In this document: in pieces, positions 7,218 through 42,149 of the stretch
How positions within the stretch are numbered: position 1 is the first letter of the stretch
How the letters are laid out: each line of letters starts with the position of its first letter
Source: Squalus acanthias
Taxonomy: Eukaryota
Reading direction: 5' to 3'
DNA length: 64,000 nucleotides
NCBI GenBank assembly: GCA_030390025.1
Contig: CM059432.1
Location: 14,262,001-14,326,000 of the forward strand
Position numbers and translations under genes: made by a program
Notes under the pieces: model-generated
Database searches by the model: none
Told to the model about the DNA's origin: nothing
Seen by the model: only the letters and a program-made list of their open reading frames with translations

Positions 7218-7706
7218 AACATCATTTATGTGGAAGAAACCCGGGGTGATTTTTTTTTTCCTCTCCCTAGCTAGGATCACTTAGTATAAAGCAGGGATCC
7301 TGGTCTGTATGCTTTAGTACCACACCATTCAACTGCTACTCAACACATATCCACATCAAGCCATCTGTAGACTGTGAATTAAACAGAATACCATTTGTGA
7401 ACCCTAAAAATGCAGTCATAAAAACACTCATTTCAAATCACTATGGTTCAAGCCCGAGTTCATAACATAGGCCAAAACTACCATAAATGTGAAAAATGTT
7501 ACCTACTTGTCAGTTTGACTGCTATAGATTGTATTAGGGATGGGGAGCAGGGTGAAAGGATATTATCTCTGTCTACCACATGTTAGGCATATTGCTTACT
7601 GTCTATGCAATACAAATATACAGAAGTTGAAAATTCAAGAGCTGTGGAGAATGTGTGAGAAGAGAAGGCAGAAAGCAAATCACGTAGTGATTGAATCAGA
7701 AATGAA

Positions 7707-18901: not shown

Positions 18902-19746
18902 GGGCTGGATTTTATGAATGGAGACGTGTTGGATGCGGGACTGCTGCTTGCCGGGTCTCAGTCCTGCCTCCATCATCTTCTGGCCAACCAGCGGGATTTT
19001 CCCCTGATTGACCTTGTTAAGCCCACCCTGCGGGCTCAGCAGGCCAATTAGGGGGAAGTCACCGACAGAGCACGTCAACGTCTGACGTGCCATCTGTCAA
19101 GATTTCTTGAAAGAAGAAATGTCAGTGTTTGACAGCTCTGTGAAGCTGTCAAACACTGACATTCTGTATAGTTTGATGAGCCCTTGTGTTCAGGACTCAT
19201 CAAACCTTTCTATTTTGTAGAAATCAGATGACTGTTTGTTCAGAGGATCCAACAGCCAGTCTGTGAAATCTACAATGAAGATGTTGGGACTCCGGATCCA
19301 AAGCGGCTGAAGGCTGTAGGCAGAAACAAAGGTAAGTGAACATTTTCTAACACTTTACACTCACCTCACATACTTACCACTCCACACTTGCACCCATCAC
19401 TCACCTCTACATTGCACTTTCAGACCCCGCAGACCCCCGCAGACCTCCTACTCGACTCCTCCACCCCGGCGGGGTTCTCCGAGGTTGGGAAGCCAGCACT
19501 TGAAAAGGTAAAATGGGACTAATCCTTTTTTCTGCCTGTTAACTACCTGTTAACAGGCAGTTAAAAGGATTTAATCCCTTTCCCGCCTCGAGGAGACGGG
19601 ACCCGGGGCAGGACGGCTTCCCGCCTCCTGGCAAAAGGGCACGGAGGCGAGATGGGGGCGGTTTTGCCAGCCGCCCCCACTTTCTGCAACTTTACCGGCA
19701 GTCCTGCCTCCATACCCGCCTCCTCGGGGCTGGTAAAATCCAGCCC
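18902..19746 (-). mobile_element. Harbinger-type MITE, family A, copy 2, inserted in a CR1 fragment
   Basis: Perfect 13-bp TIR GGGCTGGATTTTA / TAAAATCCAGCCC; TSD TTA (18899-18901, 19747-19749), the canonical PIF/Harbinger target. Confidence 0.92.
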
Positions 19747-20681: not shown

Positions 20682-21574
20682 GGGGGAGAAATTCAGTATC
20701 GCCCCATTTGGGGCGTAATTATCGGCCGGGTGCAAAGATTAGCGCCTGGCGCTAATTATCGCCACCGACTGCAAACTTGACTTTTATCGCCCCTGGAGGT
20801 GATTGCAGCGCTAAATCAGGCGCTTCACACCTGTCTTAAGGCGCAAAGGCCGAGGAGCGAGACACTACCTCAGAGCGCTGGCGAAGCTCATGTAATGTCA
20901 GTCAGCAATGGAACACACACACAATGGCACGGGCCAGTTCTTAAAGGGGATGGTTAATCTTGCTTTCCATCCACATCCTGTTCATTGCAGCCTTGAATCT
21001 CGGCCTGGAGAGACCTGCACATCAAATGTGCTGGAAAGAACAATGGAGAGTACCAGGCCAAGAGCTCAGAGTACAGCCCCCACAGTCTCTGCTAAATCGA
21101 TACAAGGAATGGCAAATCAAAATGAACCTGCAAAGTGCTGCTCAGTACCCAAAACTCCTTCACACAATGTTGAATCTCTCCAGAAGTCTCTCCCTCTCTC
21201 TCTCAGAATGCGTAGTTCAAAAATGGCACCAACAATAAAAGGCAGGAAGCGGTCACCTTTAAATAGCGCTCCCCCTTTCCCTTCATGACTGCAGAACGCT
21301 CCCCTCAACCTGTCGTTGCTAGCGTCAGGCGGTAAGGCAGGGGGCACCACTCAATATCCGCTCCGGGGCGATACCGGGGCGTTGCGCACTCGAGTGACGT
21401 CATGATCTGCCGGCGCAGGATATCGTGGCGGTAGTGTTTAGCGCCGCCGCAAAATGTCTAGTTAATTTTGCGAGCGGCGCAAACTTCGCCGCGCCTGGGC
21501 GCTAGATGCTTTGCGCCCCATTAGCGCCCTCTTAAGGCGCTAACGGGAGGCGCAACCAACTGAATTTTTCCCCC
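20682..21574 (-). mobile_element. Internally deleted non-autonomous relative of the 37273-41506 Harbinger, inverted orientation
   Basis: Ends GGGGGAGAAATT / AATTTTTCCCCC. The left part resembles the reverse complement of about 41130-41506. The right part resembles the reverse complement of about 37273-37700 (e.g. gcgctaacgggaggcgcaaccaactgaattttt). Both coding regions are essentially missing; TSD ambiguous. Confidence 0.9.
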
Positions 21575-21957: not shown

Positions 21958-22389
21958 TTAATTTAGCTGAACTTCAGGTTACATGGCTATAAAAAAGGAA
22001 GTAATGCACATAATTATATCAAGAAAACAAAACTGCATGGAGTAAAGTTGCGCTGTCTGAAGTTTGAATATTTAAATAATAGCCTTGATAGGCCAGCATT
22101 TTTTTCTAGAGATCTATTCATATTTTCAAGTAGTGGCAAACATTCCTTTTTTTCACCTCAGCTCTCCTCATCTTTCCTCTCCTGAAGGCAATGACTTATA
22201 AAATTCTTCATGTGCAAGTGTCATGTTTCGGGAATTTTGACTATGCTTCTACAAGGGGCCCATAGTATAATATATGTTAAAAATGCTACTTTGAGCTAAG
22301 TGTAACTCTTAAGGGTAAATTTACAGGGCAGCATGGCTGGGAGTAGATTAAGATTCAGATAGGGGTCTGAAGCAGTGGGGTTGGACAAT

Positions 22390-22968
22390 ACATAGATACA
22401 TAGATACATAGAAGATAGGAGCAGGAGTAGGCCATCCGGCCCTTCGAGCCTGCTCCGCCATTTAATGAGATCATGGCTGATCCTCCAATTCAGTATCCCG
22501 TCCCCGCCTTCTCTCCGTAACCCTTAACCCCTTTTGCCTGTAGAAATATATCTAATTCCCTCTTAAATATATTTAATGAGCTGGCGTACACTGCCCTCTG
22601 TGGCAATGAGTTCCACAGGTTCACCACCCTCTGAGTGAAGAAATTCCCCCTCATTTCTGTCCTAAATGGTTTAGCCCTTATCCTTAAATTATGTCCTCTA
22701 GTTCTGTTCTCACCCGCCAAGGGAAACATTCCTTCTGCATCTAGTCTGTCTAGACCTGTCAGAATTTTATACACTTCTATGAGGTCCCCTCTCAATCTTC
22801 TAAACTCCAGTGTGTACATCCCTAAACTACATAGTCTCTCCTCATAGGTCAATCCCGCCATTCCTGGTATCAGCCTGGTGAATCGCCGCTGCACCCCCTC
22901 CATGGCAAGAACATCTTTCCTCAGATGAGGCGACTAAAACTGTACACAGTACTCGAGGTGTGGTCTCA
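22390..22968 (-). mobile_element. Young CR1 3' fragment, nearly identical to 55077-55646
   Basis: Open ORF2 C-terminus 22490..22903; (CATAGATA)n tail. Confidence 0.95.
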
Positions 22969-23456
22969 GGCCAACATCCCCAGCATCGAAGCTTTGACCA
23001 CGCTCGATCAGCTCCGATGGATGGGTCACATTGTCCGCATGCCCAATACGAGACTCCCAAAACAAGCGCTCAACTCAAAGCTCCGACACGGCAAGAGAGC
23101 CCCAGGTAGGCAGAGGAAACGCTTCAAGGACACCCTCAAAGCCTCCTTGAAAAAGTGCAACATCCCCTCCGACACCTGGAAATCCCTGGCCCAAGACCGC
23201 ACAAAGTGGAGGAGAAGCATCCGGGAAGGCGCCGAACACCTCGAGTCTCTTCGCCGGGAGCAAGTGGAAGCCAAGCGCAAACAGCGGAAGGAGCGCACAT
23301 CAACCCAAGCACCCCACCCACCCGTCCCTTCAACCACTGTCTGCCCCACCTGTGACAGAGACTGTAGGTCCCGCATTGGACTCATCAGTCACCTGAGAAC
23401 TCATTTTTAATATGGAAGCAAGTCATCCTCGGTTCCGAGGGACCGTCTAAGAAGAA
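22965..23456 (+). mobile_element. RTE-clade LINE 3' fragment
   Basis: QLRWMGHIVRMPNTRLPKQ...GRQRKRFKDTLK...CPTCDRDCRSRIGLISHLRTH (C-terminal C2H2); (AAG)n tail. Confidence 0.9.
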
Positions 23457-23610
23457 TTCCTTTAAACTCATTGCCACGTTCGGCTGATGGATTATGTTCT
23501 GGAGGTGGTGGTGGGGGTGCTGTAGTAAAACATGACAGGATATTGCATGGGAAGGAGGTTAGAAGGGGGTTCTGCCCTGGCCTGAAGCAGAGAATATAGA
23601 AGGGTTAATC

Positions 23611-23765
23611 ACCGAGAATTTCCTCGGTGGTTTCTCTTGATCGTCCGTCGTAACTTCGGCGTAAGATCGGTGGGAACCCCAGATAGACATGTAAATGGGG
23701 TTGGTGCCGATCTTCCACTGAAGTTATGCCGGACGATCGGGTGAGCCCCGGAGGAAATTCCCAGC
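23611..23765. mobile_element. Small fold-back MITE (about 155 bp imperfect hairpin)
   Basis: Arms gaatttcctc...gatcgtccg..taacttc..aagatcgg..aacccc pair with ggggtt..ccgatctt..gaagtta..cggacgatc..gaggaaattc. Confidence 0.7.
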
Positions 23766-24211
23766 AATTTTGTTCAAGCCAAATAAGATGATCCACTGAT
23801 GGTCTTTGTGTAATGATTCATTATTGTGTACTAATACACAAAGACCAATTGCATCGATTGAAATAAGTGAATACGATCATAACTGTTGCTTTGTCTGTTC
23901 ATGTGCCCTGAAATAAAGCAGCTGACTGATTTGTATCAAGCCTCAAATCAACAAGTGTTCTCTAAATTTGTCTTGAGGGAGATTGAAGAAGCATTCGTGC
24001 AAAAGATTGAATCCGAGAAGATATCTACAGCAGATATGTAACAGCGATCTCCCCTCAGAAGTGCGCTGGCTGCCAAATTGGAATGCAGCAAATTCTAGGT
24101 GTGCAGGATGCCTGCTCAAAACAGGCATTCGGCATCTGGCATCTACCAATTGGAGTCTTAATACCGGTTGTAGGACCCTGATGCAAAATTGGTCCTCAAA
24201 TGGATGAATAT

Positions 24212-24744
24212 CATAAGAACATAAGAACATAAGAAATAGGAGCAGGAGTAGGCCAATCGGCCCTTCGAGCCTGCTCCGCCATTCAATAAGATCATGGCTG
24301 ATCTGATCCTCACCTCAAATCTAAAGAACACAAGAAGTAGGAGCAGGACCCGGCCACTCAGCCCCTGGGCCCGCTCCGCCACCCACAGGGCCGCGACCGA
24401 TCCGAACTCAGCCTCATGTCCAATTTCCTGCCCGCTCCCCGTAACCCCTAATTCCCTTTACTTCTAGGAAACTGTCTATTTCTGTTTTAAATTTATTTAA
24501 TGATGCAGCTTCCACAGCTTCCTGGGGCAGCAAATTCCACAGACCTACTACCCTCTGAGTGAAGAAGTTTCTCCTCATCTCAGTTTTGAAAGAGCAGCCC
24601 CTTATTCTAAGATTATGCCCCCTAGTTCTAGTTTCACCCATCCTTGGGAACATCCTTACCGCATCCACCCGATCAAGCCCCTTCACAATCTTATATGTTT
24701 CAATAAGATCGCCTCTCATTCTTCTGAACTCCAATGAGTAGAGT
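24212..24744 (-). mobile_element. CR1 3' fragment with a doubled 3' UTR
   Basis: ORF2 C-terminus 24414..24734; two successive tail motifs, each ending ctgctccta... Confidence 0.92.
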
Positions 24745-25465
24745 CATGTATGGTCTGCCCAGTTGTTCCGGGACATCAGTGGCCTAAATAGCATTCCTTA
24801 ACGGAACCACTGGAGGCTGCCTTCAAAAAAATAAGAAAACTTTGTCATCATTTTATTTCTGCAGAATCAAGAGTGCTTCTCCTGGCTCCACGAAAATACT
24901 GCAGCCTCACTGCTGGCCCAGGCCCCAGGCCCCAGGCCCGCCTCTCTCCGGTTTGCCATTTCCCACCCAGGACTACCTGCGGGCCAGCCGTAATTCCTAA
25001 GGCCCCGATCAGGTGCCCCTATGCACCTGGCCGGATTAATTCAATTGCGGCCCGATGACAAGTTTGGCTCGGGGGCCTCTTGCTGATGTTTTTTTGGTGC
25101 GCGTTCGATTGTGCTGTCCATTTTGCGGCAGAAACCGGCACGATCTGAATTTTCTCCCCAACGCCATAACCTGTCTTTTCTCTTCACAGATTCCAACTGG
25201 CGTAAAAGCCTACTTCCAGCATCTTCTGTTTTTATTTTAGATTTTCAACATTTGCAGTTTTTCTTTTTTTACTTTAAGGTCAAAAGAAATGGAAAGACTT
25301 GCATTCATATTGTGTTTTTCACAACCTCACTTCAGCATTAATGATCTGACACTGGATCTCACTACCACAATTATGTTTACAGAACACAATAAAGATACTT
25401 AGGAGTAAACATTCATTATCACGCTGGCATTTTCTCTATGTTGGGTTCTTTAAACTGATAATATT

Positions 25466-26221
25466 GGCCCAGAAATTCGGCTCCCTGGCTTCCCGCGGGT
25501 GCAAGGATCCTGCGCGCACCTACCTACCGCGCCTGCCGTTGACCTCTGGGCCCACGGGGACTTCAGCTCCTGGGCCTCTCCCTCGTGCCGGCGCGCAGTG
25601 CGTGCGTGTCCCAGGGGCGTCGTTAGTGCGATGCGTCCCCTGGGATCACGTGGGCCATGGAGAGCCAATGGCAGCAGACCATCTTTCATTCATAGATTGA
25701 CCTGTCAAATCTATGACTTGAAATCGGCCCCAAAACAACACCTAAACTTCAAATACATTTTTAAAAAACCATCACATTTTTAAAATAACTATAAGTTAAA
25801 TAAATTAACTACTTTAAACAAAAATTTTAATTTTTGAAAAAATTAAAATACTTTTTAACAGTGCTAAAAATAAACTTACCTTTCTTTAAAGTATCTAAAA
25901 AAGATAAACCTGTTGAAAAATTTTTTAAATTGTAATTAATTAACCACTTACCTTGCTGAAAACGGGTCTTGCACCTCCTTTTTAAAAGCGCAGGTTCTTC
26001 AATACTTACCCTCCCGGAGAAACCTGAAAAAAAACCTAAGTTTGCTGCGTGAGCGCAGCCTCTACTGCGCACGCGGTTCACCTCTGAACCTCCCCCTTCA
26101 CCAGACCGGAAGTTCCGGTTTTCCGCGCATGCGCAGTGCATGCAGTAAACCGGCACTTCAGGAGGCCTTACGGGTGAGTACACAGCGCGTACTCACCCGG
26201 GAAGGGCCGAATTTTTGGCCC
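25466..26221 (-). mobile_element. Harbinger-type MITE, family B, copy 1
   Basis: TIRs GGCCCAGAAATTCGG / CCGAATTTTTGGCCC; TSD ATT (25463-25465, 26222-26224); GC-rich arms around an AT-rich core; inverted homolog of 28850-29613. Confidence 0.88.
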
Positions 26222-28011
26222 ATTGTATTCCTGTAAATTGGAATTCCGATGGATTCCTAGTTTTGGAATCCCAGAAGCAAGAGAAGGGATGAGTGAAAAG
26301 CTAATGGGATAAATGTTGTGAGTTTGCCACAAAACAGTAAAACATAAAAAGGTGAGTCAGGGACCCGAGGGTTCAGTAGTTCATATTACATCCATGTGTA
26401 CTCAATCTGCCAAATATGTGTGTAACCAGGTTTGGCAATCAATGACCCAACTTGTCTAGTGGGGATTCTTGAAAGGCAAAGCGAAATGGGGTTGCATTCC
26501 TGAGGCAGTTCAACCGATTGTCTGCCATAACTGGTGGAAGAGCCTCAGATATCCAGGAACAACGGCATGAATGGTATATGAGAATCAAAGCCAGCTCTGG
26601 AAAGTGCCCGGGTAGTATAAACGCTGCTATTGATCCTGCAAAAAATGCCAATCTGAAGATTTATCTGAACCGTAACGACTCCCGAGGAAATCTCAGCGTC
26701 ATTTTTTTGTTACAATGAAGGCAAGTCAATTCTGGGACCAAACAATCAGTGAGCGAAGAACCAACTAAAGCTTAAGAGGACAAAGACTCAAGGGCTGATC
26801 CAGAAACCTTTTATTGCAATGAAGAAGTAGTGGGGGTGAATTTCTGTGGGGGGAAGCGGGGATACTGAGGGCGAGGGAAGAGAGGAAACCGAGGCCGTCC
26901 GCCAGATCTTCGTCGGAAAAACTGCAGAAACCCGGAAAACAGCACGTTTTCTTCCATGAGTTTTATTTTCCCTTTGGCACAAAGCATCATGCATTTGGCC
27001 TATTAGTGTGCCAGTTCTGTCAATGTAGTGTAATTTAGATTGTATCATGTTTAATTAGGTCCAATGCTTCAGAAAGGTGCAAACAAAATGCTGTAAGTAG
27101 TGTTCCTGAACATTTAGTCCCTGGCTGCAGGCGTTGTCTCATCTCCACCAAAGAAAATAACATTTGAACGATTGGAGTCTTAGTCTGCTCAAACATCTTC
27201 ACGCCTCTCTGTGCACCTGTCAAACAACAAAGGTTACACTTATGAGACATCTGTGCTTGTTGGGGTGCCTCTGGCTTCATTCTGTTGTTATGACACCTAA
27301 CACACATTTAAAAGAGAAATAAAGCACCTGGCTGGTTTAGTATCAAATATCCAGCATATGTGGTGACAGTCTGAAGGGGATTATTATGTTATCTGCAGTG
27401 GCCTGTAAAAAATGGATAGACTGTTCCCATTTTAAATCCCAACAGATTAGACATTATAAATGCAAAATTTTCCATCCATTGACTACCAATAGGCAGAAAA
27501 TCTACCAGTTTCTTTCCCATGGACTTATCTTAAACAGAACTACTGTCTGTCTCTTTAAGCCATCCTAGCTAAATCTGTCTGCTCAAATCAAAGGTGTCTC
27601 CTAATGATCTAATTAATGAGCCAGGCTGATGTATCAAAGTTAGACTGTTGTACTTTCTCTGACCTTTGTGTAGGCTTGCTATGATATGAAATGATTTATG
27701 ACTTCCCTTTGTGCAGAAGCCATCTTTCCCTTGGCATTGCATTAATTAGAAAAGAGCTGATATTCAAAGCAGTGTTAAACGATTGGCCAGAGTAAATTTC
27801 CCCTAAAGCTATGTTCTTGCAAGGAGCCTGACTTTTCCCCCAACAAGTCTACATTACATTTCATAACAAAAAAGAGGGACACTGGGACATTGCACTGTCT
27901 TAAGCTATCATATTTAATGCAGCTTTAATGGCATATATGTCAATCTCAGAAAAGGGAAAGTCACCTCCAAAATGTGCAGAACTTTCATTTCTGAGTTGGC
28001 CCATTCATTTT

Positions 28012-33780: not shown

Positions 33781-33864
33781 TTTTTAATAGTCAGGCAATT
33801 GGTGCTGGAATCCCCATCTTTTCTAGCAGGGGTGATTCATTCTGTACGAACGAGCAAAGACTGA

Positions 33865-35649
33865 GGCCGCAATTTCCCCTACCTCGGCGGGTCTGTTGTG
33901 GGTGACATCGGTGGTGGGTCCCGACCCTGCTGCCGGCTCCAGCCCACTGTCCAAAATTAATTTCCTCTGATTGGGTTTGTTAAGCCCACCCAGCGCATTT
34001 GCCGGCCAATTGAAGGAAGCGGATCTGATGACGTCATTTGATGACGCGTCATCAGCCGGATTCCTTAAAGGGACTATGCGCAAATTGATTTTGGCATTTG
34101 TGCTGTCAGTGTTCTACAGCATTGAGGTGCTGCAAACACTGACAAGCACAGCACAGAGGTGGACGTTTGCACCCAGGCTCTCCCATGACTCTCTCCATAT
34201 GCTTATGGAGGGAGTCACAGCACGCAGGGAGGTTCTCTTCCCTTCCCATGGGCAGAAGAGACCTCCCCAGGAGATCAATGCAGTCTGGTTGCACATTGCA
34301 CAGGAGGGCACAAGCAGGGATGTCGTCAGGAGGACCAGTTTGCAGTGACGCAAACCTTTCAATGATCACAAAACGTTAGTACAAAGCCACACTCAACCTC
34401 ATCCTGCTGTGCCATTCATCACATCTCCATCACTCTGCCTTCCCTACCCTACTCGTGCACATCCTTACTCACACCAACTTACCTTGCACCTCCACCCATC
34501 CCTCTCTATCTACATTATCACATCCCCATCTCACTAGCCACCCCTCACACTCACCCTCATCCTAGTGCAATCATACCAACTAACAACACACAAAGGTAGG
34601 CACTTGGGTGTTTTATGCAATGTTCATGTAAAGTTTCTGTTAATGTGGTGTCAAACATTGAAACCTTTATTTTCAACACTTTGTGTTCTTGGACAGATCT
34701 GTGTGCACCTTTGGAAGTGGCTTAGTGAGTTGCAGTGAATGGTGAGACAAAACGGTAGCCCCCCCCCCCCTCCCCGCAATGGTCATGAGTGTGAAAGGAA
34801 TGGCTTGGGCATTGTAGGGATGCTTTATGGTGTTGGTGTGGGGTGGTGCCAACCTGGTGCATCACGTGGCAGCCAGGGTATACAGTGTCAAGTGAAGTAA
34901 ACCTGGCTGTGGTAAGGCCATCCCTGGCCTCCTGGGCAGCAATGTGGTCGAGTGCTGATACCCTCTGTCTTGTGCAGCATCAGGTGATTGCGGAGAAGGT
35001 TGATGTTGTTGGTGCTGCTGGTGTGCCTGGTGCTGCTAGTGTTGGGGCTGATCGTGACGGGATTCTGAGGACCACGGTGAGATAGTTTCAAGGGCACCGA
35101 TGCTGATGTAATAGATGGCAGGTGATCTTGAGATGACAGAAGCGATCTGTCAATGGTGAGTGAGGTTGTTCCAATGAGGTGACACTGGACAGAGAGTTTG
35201 CTCCAAACACTTGCAACCTGCCTAAAGCTCAATCTGTCTTCCAAATGCAATAAGCAACAGCTTTTAACATTGGAAAGTGAACAGATGTGAGATGGGAGCT
35301 TTTATAACACATTTTCAGCTGTCTAGTAATGAGATGATTCCATGGTCATACGACTCCTGACCTGCTTACTTGACGTGATCCCCGAGCAGTGTCGACCCCG
35401 TGGGCGACCTTGTAAAATGTAAAGGAGCGCTCAAAATACTTCTTAATGGGCTGTTAACAAGGTCATATGACCTGAATTGGTTCCCCCGCCGCTGCGTGTC
35501 GGGTCTGTTCAGCATTGACAGACCCAACATCTGGGAAAGGCACATGGCTGGGGGTTGACAGCAAGGTCCCAACCCGCTGTCAAAAAACTTTTTTCCCCCA
35601 CCCGACCCACCACCGAATGTGCCCGCTGACCCCCCGAAAAACTCTCCCC
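33865..35649 (+). mobile_element. Degenerate non-autonomous Harbinger with a Myb-domain remnant
   Basis: TGA flanks both ends (33862-33864, 35650-35652); TIRs are weak. About 34165-34370 reads APRLSHDSLHMLMEGVTARREVLFP...AVWLHIAQEGTSRDVVRRTSLQ*RKPFND, which parallels Myb exon 1 of the intact element. Confidence 0.7.
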
Positions 35650-37005: not shown

Positions 37006-37580
37006 TTACATTTACTCTATCTAAACCCTTCATGATTTTAAACTCCTCTATCAAATCTGTTCCAAGGAGAACAACCCCAGCTTCCCTAGTCTATCCACAT
37101 AACTGTAATCCCTCATCCCTGGAACCATTCTAGTAAATCTCTTCTGTACCCTCTCCAAAGCCTTCACGTCCTTCCTAAATTGTGGTGTCCAGAATTGGAC
37201 ACAATGCTCCAGCTGGGGCCGAACTAGTGTTTTATATAGGTTTAGCAGCACTTCCTGGCTTTTATAGTCTATGGGGTAAAAATTCAGTTGGTTGCGCCTC
37301 CCGTTAGTGCCTTAAAAGGGCGCTAATGGGGCGTTAAGGCGCTAACGCCCGGGCGCAGCGCTGTTTGCGCCGCTCGAGAACTTAACTTGAGATTGTGCGG
37401 CGGCGCTAAAACTTACCGTTGCGACCACCTGCGCGCGCAGATTGTGACGTCATTCCGTGGTGCAACGCCCTTGGGGCGCCCCGGAGCGGAAATTGAGTGG
37501 CGCCCCCTGCCTTACCGCCTGGCGCTTCCAACGACCGGAAGACTGGAACGTTATCAATCGGTGTGGGGCTGGGGGGGGGC

Positions 37581-37590
37581 GCTATTTAAA
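37581..37590 (+). promoter_or_regulatory. Candidate TATA-like box for the transposase gene
   Basis: GCTATTTAAA about 200 bp upstream of the ATG. The same motif is kept in the deleted relative (TTTAAATAGC at about 21258, opposite orientation). Confidence 0.45.
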
Positions 37591-37785
37591 GGGGGCCTCT
37601 TCCTGTCTTTTTCTGTGGTCGACATTTATGCACCACTCGTTCTGAGAGAGAGAGAGAGATTCGGAGAGAGAGAGAGAGAGACTTCTACATTGACTCAACG
37701 CTTTGTGAGGTAGTTTGGCCTAGTTCATCCTAACTTTGCTGCTACTTTCGTTGCTGTACCTCATTACTTTTCTGGCAAAGAGAAT

Positions 37786-38946
37786 ATGGGGGCTGCAATG
37801 ATTGGGGGCGTCGTCCTGCTCCAGCTCAATCGGAGGATAGTGAGACGCAGACAGAGAGTGGCAATGATGGCCAGACGGAGGAGGGCCATCAGGCGCATGT
37901 ACAGGAGAGCTTACCCTCCCAGGGTATATCGTGAACAGCTCTCCTACATCCACATGTCCAAGGAGCTGTGTTTGCGAAGGCTGCGATTCAGCAAGGAGGT
38001 GGTCACTGAGCTCTGCCACCTGCTGCAGCCAGATCTGCAGCCTCAGCTGAGGTCCAGGACGTCTCTGTCGGTGGCAGTGAAGGTCACAGTGGCTTTGAAC
38101 TTCTACGCCACTGGCTCATTCCAAGCTGCTGTTGGGGACCTCGCCAATATCTCCCAGTTTGCGGTGCATCGCTGCATCCGGCAGGTCACCAATGCCCTCT
38201 TCACAAGGAGACGAGACTTCATCTCCTTCCCTATGACCCCAGACAAGCAGCATGACCGTGCTATGGGCTTTGCGAGGGTAGCGGGCTTCCCCATGGTGCA
38301 GGGCGCCATTGACTGCACGCATGTGGCTTTGCGTGCTCCGCGAGAGAATGCAGAGGAGTTCCGGAACAGAAAGGGGTTCCATTCCTTGAATGTGCAGCTG
38401 GTCTGTGACCACAGACAGGTGATTCTCGCTGTCAATGCCCACTATCCGGGCAGCTGCCACGATGCTTTCATCCTGCGCCAGAGTACTGTGGCAGAAATTT
38501 TCGAGGCACCGCATCAGCCAGTTGGTTGGCTTCTGGGGGACAAGGGGTACGCATTGAGCACCTGGCTGATGACACCGCTCCGTACGCCAAACACCCCTGC
38601 TGAGCTGCGGTACAATGAAAGCCATCAAGCAACCAGGAACATTATTGAGCGCACAATCGGCGTGCTCAAACAACGATTCCGCTGTCTGGACCATTCCGGA
38701 GGAGCCCTGCAGTACTCTCCTGAGCAAGTTTCCAAATTCGTAGTGGTGTGCTGCATGTTGCACAACATGGCAATCCTCAGGACGCAGCCAATGCCACCAG
38801 GCCTTGCAGCACCACAAGAGGAGGAGGAGGAAGAGGAGGAACAGGCCGAGGACGATGATCAGCAGCAGCACCAAGGCAGGAGGGCGGCCCACAATGGTCA
38901 AACTGCAAGGGCCGTCCGTCAACGACTAATAGCAAGCCGCTTCTAG
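37786..38946 (+). CDS. Harbinger DDE transposase (HARBI1-like), 386 aa, uninterrupted
   Basis: Motifs typical of PIF/Harbinger transposases: N-terminal HTH region (VTVALNFYATGSFQAAVGDLANISQFAVHRCI), GAIDCTH, FRNRKGFHSLNVQLVCD, PGSCHDAFIL, LLGDKGY, YNESHQATRNIIERTIGVLKQRFRCL, CCMLHN, then an acidic tail. Confidence 0.96.
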   Translation: MGAAMIGGVVLLQLNRRIVRRRQRVAMMARRRRAIRRMYRRAYPPRVYREQLSYIHMSKELCLRRLRFSKEVVTELCHLLQPDLQPQLRSRTSLSVAVKVTVALNFYATGSFQAAVGDLANISQFAVHRCIRQVTNALFTRRRDFISFPMTPDKQHDRAMGFARVAGFPMVQGAIDCTHVALRAPRENAEEFRNRKGFHSLNVQLVCDHRQVILAVNAHYPGSCHDAFILRQSTVAEIFEAPHQPVGWLLGDKGYALSTWLMTPLRTPNTPAELRYNESHQATRNIIERTIGVLKQRFRCLDHSGGALQYSPEQVSKFVVVCCMLHNMAILRTQPMPPGLAAPQEEEEEEEEQAEDDDQQQHQGRRAAHNGQTARAVRQRLIASRF

Positions 38947-39057
38947 GGCCCCTGCCAGTGCTACAAACATGAATCAACCCAGCACGCAACCCCTAAGCCG
39001 GCCAAGGCACCAATAATTCCAACCACCAGCCATGTATATTTTGAATACAGAAACTTA

Positions 39058-39113
39058 TTTATTGTACAAACTCTGTGTGTGTCAATTCCTCATGACAAAC
39101 TCATAGAAATAAA
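39058..39113. terminator. Opposed polyadenylation signals of the two convergent Harbinger genes
   Basis: AATAAA on + at 39108-39113 downstream of the transposase stop. TTTATT at 39058-39063 is AATAAA on -, downstream of the Myb stop. Confidence 0.5.
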
Positions 39114-39240
39114 CACAAAAAAACAGTCAATAACATAACTGGTTCTCACAACCTGGAGATAATGTCCAAAACACTAAACAAAAGTTGGGCCATGAACCTC
39201 GGCCTTTAATAAAAAAATGACCAGCATTTTGGCACACCTC

Positions 39241-41149
39241 CTACTTTTTGCCCTTCGAGGGTGATCTCCTTCCCTTGCGCACTTCCCCCCTTCTAACCCT
39301 ACTGCTCCTCCGTAATGGGACCTCAGTGGCTGCAGCAAGGCTGGTGGAAGGCTGCTGCTTGTCAGACCCTGACACTGCAGATGCCCCTGAAGGACGGCCT
39401 CGACCACTTCTGGGCCTGGAGGGCCCGGCTGCAGACTGCACCAACTCTGCATGGGCGGCAGCAGTCTGTCCTACAGGCGGTGGCAAGTGCAGTGGAGAAG
39501 TGACAGTGTTGGCAGCAGGAATGCTGTCATCGTGAGAGAGGACAGCAACTCCCTGCTCGCCCGACACACTGGCACTCCCACGGGGCAGCACTTCAGCATC
39601 CGGAGCAATTTGCCGGAGAACAGATTGCTGGCCTGCTGCGGCGCGGTGACAGCCCCGGGGACATGTGCACGAACCATCGAGGATGGCAGCAGTCAATGCT
39701 CGCGTGGCCTCAATCTGAGTCTGCATGAGAGCAGTCAGAGATGGGTTCCTGGCAGCCAGTGACTGAATTGCAGCACTAAGCTTTAGTGTGGCATCCGCCT
39801 GTGCTACAGCGAAGTGCTCCACACTCCTTGCCAGTGCCTCAATGCATTCGGGCACCCTTCCCACTGCACCCATGAGCTCAGTGTGCATGCCCACCGCCTG
39901 GCTGTTCATTTCTGCAATCAGCCGCTCCTCCTCTGCGTCCATTGCATTAGGAGTGTCTGGCATACTCTCCCTCTGGGGAGAAGGCTCCCGTTCTTCCCTC
40001 CCCCCCCCATGGCGTGGCTGCAGCCCGCTGGGTCCTGGAGCTTCACCATCATCAGCCCCTTCCCCCCTGCTCCCCCGTTCTTCCCTCCCCCCCCAATGGC
40101 GTTGCTGCAGCCCGCTGGGTCCTGGAACTTCACCATCATCAGCCCCTTCCCCCCTGCTCCCCTCCGGGGAAGGCGTGTTCCCAGTGTGGCCATGGGCTTC
40201 CTCGGGAGAGGGTGGCACTGATGCTCCGGCTTCCTCTTCCTCCTCAGCTGCAGCATCACTCCCAGTGGCAGCTTCAGGGACCATCTCCTCAGCTGGTGAA
40301 TCACCATCTGAAAGCAGGGAGGTACAAGAGTGGCTTTAGTGTGAGGACAGGGTGGCAGTAAGGGAGGAATAAGTGCAGCGAGTTAGCAAGTTGGATTGAA
40401 AGTGTCAAAGGCTGGTATTGTGAGGGACAAGTGGAAGGACAGAGGACAAAAAGGTGATGACCTTACCATTGCTGTCCACAACGGGGTCGGCGTCTCCAGT
40501 GGCGACGGGACCGATCACCCGGCTTGCCACAATCCTGTGGACGCGCTCCTCCAGATCGCTGAGGGGTTGCAGCTGAAGCCGCCCTCCACCCGTCCGTTGC
40601 TGCTGTCTCCGATTATGAGCCAGCTTAGCCTGCAAGAAAAAGGACAGCATCTGAGTCAATATACAGCCATGGTCTTGCTGATGTGCCTCCCATAGGTGAA
40701 TAGCCCTTACAATATGCAGCCATGGTCTTGCCTGATGTGCCTCCCATAGGTGAATAGCCCTTACTGTATGCAAAGTGTGGAATGTGTGTGTGTGTTTGAT
40801 GAAAGGGCCATAGGTGTTGCATGAGTGTTGTGCATTGGGGTTTTAAGACCCTCTGGCCATAGAGTGAGGTTGAGATGGAGGGATGGAGAGGTATTGAGAA
40901 AAAGCCACTCACCCTGACGACCCGAGTGAGGTCGTTGAACTTTTTGCGGCACTGAACATGGGTCCTGGGCACCATGCTCCTGGAGGAGACGCTCTGAGCC
41001 ACCTCCCTCCACACTCTTCTGAACTCGCGTGGCAAAGGCCTCCTGCCACTCTCCGGGAACAGCATGCATCGTCTGCGCTCCACTGCGTCAACCAGAGCAT
41101 CCAAGGCCCGCTCGGTGAAGCGATGAGCGCGTTCTCTCACCCTCTCCAT
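39241..41149 (-). CDS. Harbinger Myb/SANT-like DNA-binding protein, 3 coding exons, about 488 aa
   Basis: Exon 1 41149-40913 (79 aa: MERVRERAHRFTERALDALVDAV...WREVAQSV...RTHVQCRKKFNDLTRVVR, donor GTGAGT, phase 0). Exon 2 40629-40467 (acceptor tttttcttgCAG; AKLAHNRRQQQRTGGG..., donor GTAAGG, phase 1). Exon 3 40307-39241 (acceptor ctgctttCAG), which reads in frame into ORF 39241..40284 and ends in a basic NLS-like RRSSRVRRGEVRKGRRSPSKGKK. Confidence 0.9.
39988..40161 (-). repeat. In-frame 87-bp (29-aa) tandem duplication in Myb gene exon 3
   Basis: GSRGEGADDGEVPGPSGLQQRHWGGREER / GSRGEGADDGEAPGPSGLQPRHGGGREER; period 87 bp. Confidence 0.9.
40664..40764. repeat. About 53-bp tandem duplication in Myb gene intron 1
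   Basis: cagccatggtcttgc(c)tgatgtgcctcccataggtgaatagcccttac occurs twice. Confidence 0.85.
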
Positions 41150-42149
41150 GCTTGGCAGCAAAATGGATTACAGGTCTCTCCAGGCTGAGATTCAAGGCTG
41201 CAATGAGCAGGGTGTGGCTGGGGAGCAAGTGGCCCCCCCCGCTTTAAGAAGTGTCCGGCGCCAGTGTGTCTGTGTTCCCTCGCTAACTGGCAGCAGCTGC
41301 GCTGCGCTCGTGCGCTGAGGTAGCGCCTCACTCCTAGGCCTTTGCGCCTTAAGAGAGGTGTGCAGCGCCTAATTTAGCGCTCCACTCACCTCCCGGGGCG
41401 GTAAAAGTGAAGTTTCCTGTCAGTGCCGATAATTAGCGCCAGGCGCTAATATTTGCGCGCGGACGATATTTGCGCCCCAAATGGGGCGCGACCTAATTTC
41501 TACCCCTATGCCTCTATTTATAAAGCCCAGGATCCCATATGCTTTATTAACTGTTTTGTTAAACTGTCCCGCCACCTGCAAAGAGTTGAGCACAAGCACC
41601 CACAGGTCTCTCTGTTCTTGCACCTCCTTTAAAATTGTACCATGCAGTATGTATGGTCTCTTCTCAGTTTTCCTACCACTTGTGGTGTTTCCTGGGAGAG
41701 CATTCAAACGATCAAGTCAAGGTAGGAGTACGTGGGGTGTATTTTAACACCGGTATAAACCTATTAACCCATGATGTAGTCGGCTTCCTAGAGATTGATG
41801 GCTACTAACAAACCTCAATGGCAAACTGCTTGAATGATAATACCTGCTCTATCATAAAGTCTTTTCTTTATGAATTGTTTACAAACTTCTGAGGCTGAGA
41901 ATGGAGCAAGCCTTTCCCATTCTATTAGGTACCAGAAATTATTAGGAAAAGAATCTGTTGCCCTATCAGGTAAAACAGTAATATAAGAAACATTGCCAAC
42001 TTGAGGGAAATCTCAGAAGAGGAGAAGTGACATATGGCTGTGATCTTAATGGAACCACTTTAAATGGTAGAACGTATCTTTCTCGTGTTTCCCAAGCCTG
42101 AACAGTCCTACATTCCGATGGACATTGGGAATTATGGAAGAAGGAACTG

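Follow-up and report, generated by a model that had tools for sequence, protein, structure and literature searches.

Whether a vertebrate Harbinger transposon can be found in the genome with both of its genes in apparent working order, and whether such a copy is recent enough to be of use as it stands, is the question raised by a locus of Squalus acanthias (NCBI GenBank assembly GCA_030390025.1, contig CM059432.1, positions 14,262,001 to 14,326,000 of the forward strand; these 64,000 nucleotides are called the window here, and all positions count from its first letter). A PIF/Harbinger element of 4,234 bp spans positions 37273 to 41506 of the window, and a sequence-only reading of the same letters had proposed that it is a recent, structurally intact copy that may still be able to transpose. 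In this study I find that the element is very probably a full-length, two-gene PIF/Harbinger whose DDE transposase frame is open and whose partner gene is predicted to have three coding exons, a likely young copy belonging to one subfamily of a family that probably amounts to about 10^4 copies in a shark-type genome. That the copy's own two proteins function in a cell assay is somewhat less than an even prospect, and activity of the family in the germline at present is doubtful.

The limits of the element are set by 12-bp terminal inverted repeats (TIRs) at 37273-37284 (plus strand) and 41495-41506 (minus strand), and by a target-site duplication (TSD) of the triplet TAT at 37270-37272 and 41507-41509. 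The sequence-only reading had listed both; the TSD is indeed perfect, and the TIRs agree at 11 of 12 positions, that is, they are near-perfect and not perfect. The TIR pattern is counted four times in the window, at the two ends of the element and the two ends of a smaller relative described below, against 0.17 expected, and none of 100 shuffles reached this count. A scan of the window for TIR pairs starting with GGG and flanked by a 3-bp duplication gave five pairs, two of which are low-complexity chance matches, and TIRs with a TSD are therefore in themselves no proof of an element. What proves this one are its open reading frames (ORFs) and the junction with the CR1 long interspersed nuclear element (LINE) fragment that it interrupts. 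The two halves of this fragment lie on the minus strand, the downstream half at 37010-37272 (left bound approximate) and the upstream half at 41510-41720 (right bound approximate), and are 73-90% similar to other CR1 pieces within the window. When the element and one TAT are removed in silico, the CR1 ORF2 frame is open across the junction, which bears out the earlier description of a clean interruption.

The transposase gene (37786-38946, plus strand) consists of one coding exon, which runs from ATG to stop and encodes 386 amino acids, as judged from the ORF, Pfam matches and alignment. Its product matches PF13359 (DDE_Tnp_4, E 3.5e-40) and PF04827 (Plant_tran, E 5.5e-11), and the acidic residues D176, D226, D252 and E288 are all present, so the open reading frame with acidic catalytic motifs reported before is confirmed. 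Whichever aspartate is the second of the catalytic triad, every candidate for it is intact. All four acidic residues are kept in only 39 of the 104 homologues that cover these positions. The protein agrees with its homologues at 135 of 139 conserved columns and ranks first in this respect among 73 well-covered sequences. A structure prediction has high confidence in the core of the protein (mean predicted local distance difference test score 81); the best structural matches of the model are piggyBac (Z 9.3, root-mean-square deviation 5.7, 235 aligned) and Tn5 (Z 9.2, root-mean-square deviation 5.5, 239 aligned), neither of them close, and a Foldseek search with the model gave no match at E<=0.001. 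Upstream of the gene lies a putative TATA-like box (37583-37590, plus strand), which is retained in the smaller relative. In the leader (37628-37785, plus strand) there are an upstream ORF of five codons at 37628, a donor-like sequence at 37705-37710 and a possible acceptor just 5' of the ATG; a spliced 5' leader could influence translation of the transposase.

The partner gene is encoded on the minus strand and converges on the transposase gene. Coding exon 1 (40913-41149) carries a Myb/SANT-like DNA-binding domain (PF13873, E 1.3e-09), coding exon 2 (40467-40629) is delimited by GT-AG sites and homologue alignment, and coding exon 3 (39241-40307) comprises an acidic linker, an 87-bp in-frame duplication, a conserved central block and a basic C-terminus. 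The predicted splicing removes GT-AG introns of 283 and 159 nt and leaves a stop-free frame of 488 amino acids. Among the partner homologues, 56 of 75 align over the junction of exons 1 and 2, and 25 of 27 conserved columns agree in the N-terminus. Residues 11-485 of the predicted spliced protein align with a 554-amino-acid sawshark protein (P0125) at 36% identity, an end-to-end alignment that upholds the open partner gene of the sequence-only reading, its splicing being a prediction. Full-length relatives of the partner came from a profile-free search with exon 1; exon 3, used in a word-index search, retrieved no homologue, and it gave no hit in a Pfam scan. The RGRP stretch in the C-terminal part is presumably akin to an AT-hook core, and a pattern scan of the partner found no classical nuclear-localisation cluster. 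The 87-bp (29-amino-acid) tandem duplication of exon 3, at about 39987-40162, is lacking in five homologues, and intron 1 contains a tandem duplication of 53-54 bp (40657-40772). Joints that omit about one unit of either repeat are present in the read contigs of runs X1 and X2, and unit number therefore differs among copies of the family. Run X17, which is guessed to be RNA, covers both genes, with one contig unspliced through the border of exon 1 and intron 1; a splice joint is absent among the 15 of 130 joints that are listed, and none of the 24 runs considered here is recorded as RNA. A predicted complex of transposase residues 1-338 with the central block of the partner scored 0.32, against a mark of 0.34 and with one control at 0.52. 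The two genes share a 3' region (38947-39240) with AATAAA-type signals at 39108 on the plus strand and 39058 on the minus strand.

The smaller relative is a miniature inverted-repeat transposable element (MITE) of about 0.9 kb at 20683-21574 (minus strand), without ORFs and flanked by an ATG duplication, whose ends are 79-80% identical to those of the element. Both carry the subterminal 8-mer GGCGCTAA, a candidate binding site of the Myb partner: in the element it occurs in three copies on the plus strand (37319, 37338 and 37402, together 37319-37409) and in two copies of inverted orientation at 41433-41449. All ten copies in the window fall within the ends of the element (five) or of the MITE (five), a count that is reached in 1 of 500 shuffles of these ends. 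Observed over expected CpG is 1.13 and 0.88 in the termini of the element versus 0.38 and 0.18 in the 4-kb flanks, so that the CpG-rich termini noted earlier are real; however, they are a poor guide to how old this copy is, because the MITE also reaches 0.84, which makes high CpG a family trait. Among the loose ends of runs X2 and X10 are internal junction sequences of the MITE, which is therefore abundant too. With respect to the extended target, compared for these two sites only, the flanks of the element match the consensus of zebrafish Harbinger3_DR (as given in the available text of PMC3016246) at 7 of 12 positions (background 2.8% of window positions), and those of the MITE at 9 of 12 (background 0.09%), with the boundary of the MITE picked after its perfect ATG duplication had been seen. 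Both sites fit A-N-N-Y / R-N-N-T, and the insertion into the CR1 is most simply a hit on a matching target. The locus and its relatives thus combine what defines an autonomous PIF/Harbinger, namely a DDE transposase, a second gene of the Myb/SANT type, TIRs, a 3-bp TSD, and presence in many copies with non-autonomous derivatives.

The size of the family was approached through read contigs, which were analysed for four of the 24 listed runs (X1, X2, X10 and X17). The element is contained in 20 of the 24 runs, under seven organism labels and in unlabelled rows; runs under labels B, C, E, F and G contain 0.40-0.66 of its words, apart from four near-zero same-sample additions. From run X7 there are only 1 million letters of contigs, yet 66% of the element's words are among them, which is what one would expect of a family abundant enough to assemble from very shallow data. 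The element was divided into 18 bins, and the summed depth of contigs in them, taken relative to that of the unique right flank (41720 onward), has a median of 17,900 in X1 and 54,600 in X2, and the lowest bin still stands at 7,600 and 22,900 times the flank, respectively; this depth is a sum over overlapping short contigs and no copy number, with an inflation that I estimate at two- to three-fold and with X1 about 55% covered. To an order of magnitude, I infer some 10^4 copies at 94% local identity or more, full length and including both genes. In X1, 11,226 of 40,323 contigs are at least 99% alike, as are 18,241 of 63,265 in X2; a further 24,875 of the 40,323 X1 contigs are 95-99% alike, LINE and CR1 flanks counted in. 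Copies that are all highly diverged, which the sequence-only reading had named as grounds for dropping its proposal, are not what is seen.

The differences between this copy and the family were followed at 40 of 97 positions, 32 of them inside the element, and counts of private changes are accordingly minima. At 29 of these 32 sites, the depth behind the copy's own letter in X2 amounts to some 950 flank-equivalents or more, and no insertion or deletion in the coding sequences reached the 15% threshold for listing. A recent and structurally intact copy, as had been proposed, is therefore what the comparison favours, with its letters shared by a large subfamily. Of the differences followed in the transposase, 11 of 13 are synonymous, compared with 23% expected (P 6e-6), which indicates several master lineages under selection for a working transposase.

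Several observations nevertheless weigh against a young copy with two working genes. In the partner gene, 13 of the 15 differences followed change an amino acid and 2 are synonymous, 14 of the 15 lying in exon 3, and because of this excess no constraint is visible at these sites. The central block of the partner is shorter than in five homologues, although one of its two gaps is not private to the copy, because contigs span it unbroken. At three sites the copy's letter is rare in X2, with 0 (37960), 18 (38398) and 472 flank-equivalents (40340), so that at least three changes look private, one of them nonsynonymous. This one, at 37960, makes position 59 of the transposase a lysine, where a glutamate codon takes at least 99.6% of the depth in all four runs examined; the homologues are acidic here in 75 of 92 cases and have lysine in three. 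Lys59 lies at the start of a predicted helix in the N-terminal region, in the structure model, and it counts against the copy because the N-terminal part of the transposase binds the Myb partner in Harbinger3_DR, according to the available descriptions; the change itself looks like CpG decay. X2 does not show the window's letter at 37960, but since rare variants get lost in contigs, I do not take this to mean that the insertion is missing there. Long contigs of X10 differ from the copy at 37 of 2,563 bases (1.4%), most of which is presumably a matter of subfamily and not of decay, because the copy's letters are shared at 29 of 32 sites. With the pedigree rate reported for the epaulette shark, 7e-10 per base per generation (95% confidence interval 1.4-14e-10; available text of PMC10587355), three private changes in 4,234 bases would correspond very roughly to 10^6 generations, with the rate borrowed from another species and CpG sites mutating faster.

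The same evidence bears on whether the family still moves. An extinct family, in which a burst ended millions of years ago, slow mutation has preserved a fresh look and, of about 10^4 copies, this one merely happens to be open, has close to an even chance of being the truth; it is compatible with the anatomy set out above and departs from the preferred reading in present activity only. With copies of that order at 94-99% identity some would be expected to retain both frames, and the 49-66% of the element's words found under six other labels would fit an amplification before speciation if any of these is a related shark. A family of sea kraits is likewise described, in the available part of PMC8437027, as much less active despite 269 intact copies. 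The large fractions of contigs at least 99% alike in X1 and X2 argue against long extinction, as does the sharing of the copy's letters with a large subfamily. That the family is transposing now, with this copy a competent and polymorphic insertion, I regard as rather unlikely, even though both frames are open (the partner's as predicted), the termini whole and the TSD perfect, and purifying selection appears to have acted on the transposase between subfamilies. The private divergence, with a floor of 3/4,234 (0.07%), lies below the differences between the unique flank of the window and that in the two same-label runs, X1 (7/1,584, 0.44%) or X2 (about 4/1,685, 0.24%), so that the insertion could be younger than the alleles. 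Against present transposition stand the private changes, one of which alters a usually acidic site, and the slow mutation rate of sharks. Among the 15 of 130 joints listed, one leads from 37263 to 41509 and bypasses the element, but I rejected it as an empty allele of the locus, as in X1 eight other letters stand between its sides, which fits a paralogous CR1. The contigs break inside the CR1, and neither a filled nor an empty allele can be assigned to this locus.

Two further explanations concern the origin of the pair. Database homologues carry the label 'putative nuclease HARBI1' and several conserved homologues of sharks and rays look domesticated, so one could suspect a pair of host genes of the HARBI1/NAIF1 kind. 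The TIRs and TSD, the position within a CR1, the related MITE and a depth of 10^4 times the flank leave this idea practically no chance; besides, most of the groups that look domesticated have lost catalytic residues still present in this transposase, and the multi-copy signal refutes a single-copy gene pair as long as the read depth is genuine. A recent horizontal invader, for which Harbinger-Snek of sea kraits offers a precedent, could account for a large homogeneous burst and for runs with the element under seven organism labels. I consider it very unlikely, except perhaps as a transfer between two sharks, as all of the closest proteins listed are chondrichthyan. The homologue search with the transposase found 393 sequences, 120 of which are listed, and the best matches belong to sharks and rays, with the sawshark Pristiophorus japonicus in first place and local identities of 60-66% for the first four. 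A tree was built from 44 of 121 sequences, selected for coverage and taxon spread; in it the transposase is nested among sawshark sequences in a clade of 23 rows (support 100/99), of which the 22 with names all come from cartilaginous fish, while most rows from bony fish and tetrapods form a separate clade; from these sequences the family appears to be native to cartilaginous fish. As to the other labels, X10, the one such run whose contigs were analysed, shows a depth of about 20 for the element, about 90 for the neighbouring LINE and 0 for the unique flank, and the proportion of LINE to element resembles that in the shark runs, a pattern that would fit trace shark DNA.

For the reading preferred here, that of a likely young full-length copy in a large family, a mechanism can be proposed by analogy. 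The characterised relatives require both proteins: the Myb-like protein attaches to the element ends and to the N-terminus of the transposase, which it conveys into the nucleus; as a rule the element is excised perfectly, and vertebrate elements favour a 15-bp target (PMC2836001, PMC9392472). In the shark element, the Myb partner would bind the ends, possibly at the subterminal 8-mer, and would carry the transposase into the nucleus through the N-terminus of the latter; the transposase would then excise the element and reinsert it with a 3-nt stagger at a loosely palindromic target of 15 bp. The same two proteins could mobilise MITEs such as the one at 20683-21574, and this copy would have inserted during the amplification of the family and then acquired a few private changes. 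The full proposal holds that a mobile family, with full-length copies numbering in the order of 10^4 and adding up to tens of megabases, inhabits a slowly mutating shark genome, and that in vertebrate cells its unaltered genes bring about transposition into a palindromic target of 15 bp; it is improbable, slightly more so than present activity taken by itself. As a starting clone for an assay the copy is nevertheless a reasonable choice.

Among the closest known systems is Harbinger3_DR / Harbinger3N_DR of zebrafish, of which Harbinger3_DR was rebuilt from a consensus and moved in human cells (Sinzelle et al. 2008, as cited in PMC3016246, PMC2836001 and PMC9392472). The shark element resembles it in having a DDE transposase with a Myb-like partner, a 3-bp TSD and flanks like the extended palindromic target; however, the zebrafish element is a mobile reconstruction, whereas the shark element is a genomic copy with open frames known from its sequence, and the duplicated triplets are TAT (element) and ATG (MITE) instead of CWG. 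Harbinger-Snek of Laticauda, with 269 intact two-ORF copies in L. colubrina and with RNA reads over both genes of the intact copy in L. laticaudata (PMC8437027), is likewise a massive young expansion in a vertebrate with intact two-ORF copies and short non-autonomous derivatives. It arrived by horizontal transfer, makes up 8-12% of the genome and has RNA reads, while the shark family looks native and is known from DNA. Rice Ping/Pong with mPing is also a natural two-protein system that mobilises a MITE, as is predicted for the shark element, with the same division of labour between a Myb-like ORF1 and a transposase (PMC2836001, PMC11254759); it differs in being a plant system with TTA/TAA targets, proven activity and engineered versions, in contrast to the TAT duplication and the resemblance to a vertebrate-type 15-bp target seen here. 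HARBI1, NAIF1 and MSANTD belong to the same two protein families, but are fixed host genes without element ends (PMC9392472), unlike the multi-copy shark element with its TIRs and TSD. The TIRs of 12 bp fall below the 25-50 bp called usual in PMC9179366. For Caenorhabditis inopinata, a spontaneous insertion is described that shows an active Harbinger family in an animal.

The sequence-only reading had presented the copy as a rare survivor, usable without resurrecting a consensus. This framing is too strong in view of order 10^4 copies, the 269 intact ones of a sea krait and the natural proteins of rice Pong, which already serve as tools (PMC11254759): there are many such copies, and systems of this kind are familiar. 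Intact two-gene Harbingers of vertebrates are already published; a large young shark family is what I did not find in print, in a literature search with most subscription papers, Repbase, Dfam and genome supplements outside its scope. No transposition assay of an unreconstructed vertebrate Harbinger was found either, a statement on which large activity screens may bear, and the reconstructed zebrafish element is the only vertebrate Harbinger found to have been tested for transposition in the literature searched, as far as its available text goes. In the available text of PMC9179366 no Harbinger is reported for the elephant shark and an examination of other cartilaginous fish is called for, a question to which, for this shark, a well-preserved family with copies in the order of 10^4 gives an answer; the genome papers of the whale shark and the grey reef shark mention the superfamily once each in the portions at hand. 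The family would be a notable expansion of a DNA transposon in a group described as dominated by LINEs. If the native pair works, it would be a handy system for studying the unsolved two-protein mechanism and target-selective integration, and if the family is currently mobile, it would provide a native vertebrate two-component system for sequence-selective integration and a major driver of genome growth where recent activity has been credited to LINEs.

Other traces of Harbinger-like elements are present in the window. An element of 845 bp at 18902-19746, with perfect 13-bp TIRs and a TTA duplication, is probably a MITE of another Harbinger family, and a decayed Harbinger-like element at about 33860-35620 (plus strand, bounds set by eye) contains a remnant of a Myb domain at 34169-34387 (tblastn E 2e-12). 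A possible element of about 5.5 kb at 22313-27803 has inverted ends matching at 11 of 13 positions and a TAA duplication and includes a LINE remnant; it could be due to chance. Among the homologues of the transposase, five short-branch groups labelled 'putative nuclease HARBI1' are common to shark and/or ray genera (P0005/P0006; P0010/P0013; P0023/P0025/P0065; P0040/P0041; P0009/P0016/P0017/P0021/P0027). No member of these groups retains the full set of four acidic residues, and from sequence the groups look like elasmobranch-specific domesticated Harbinger transposases that would be catalytically dead.

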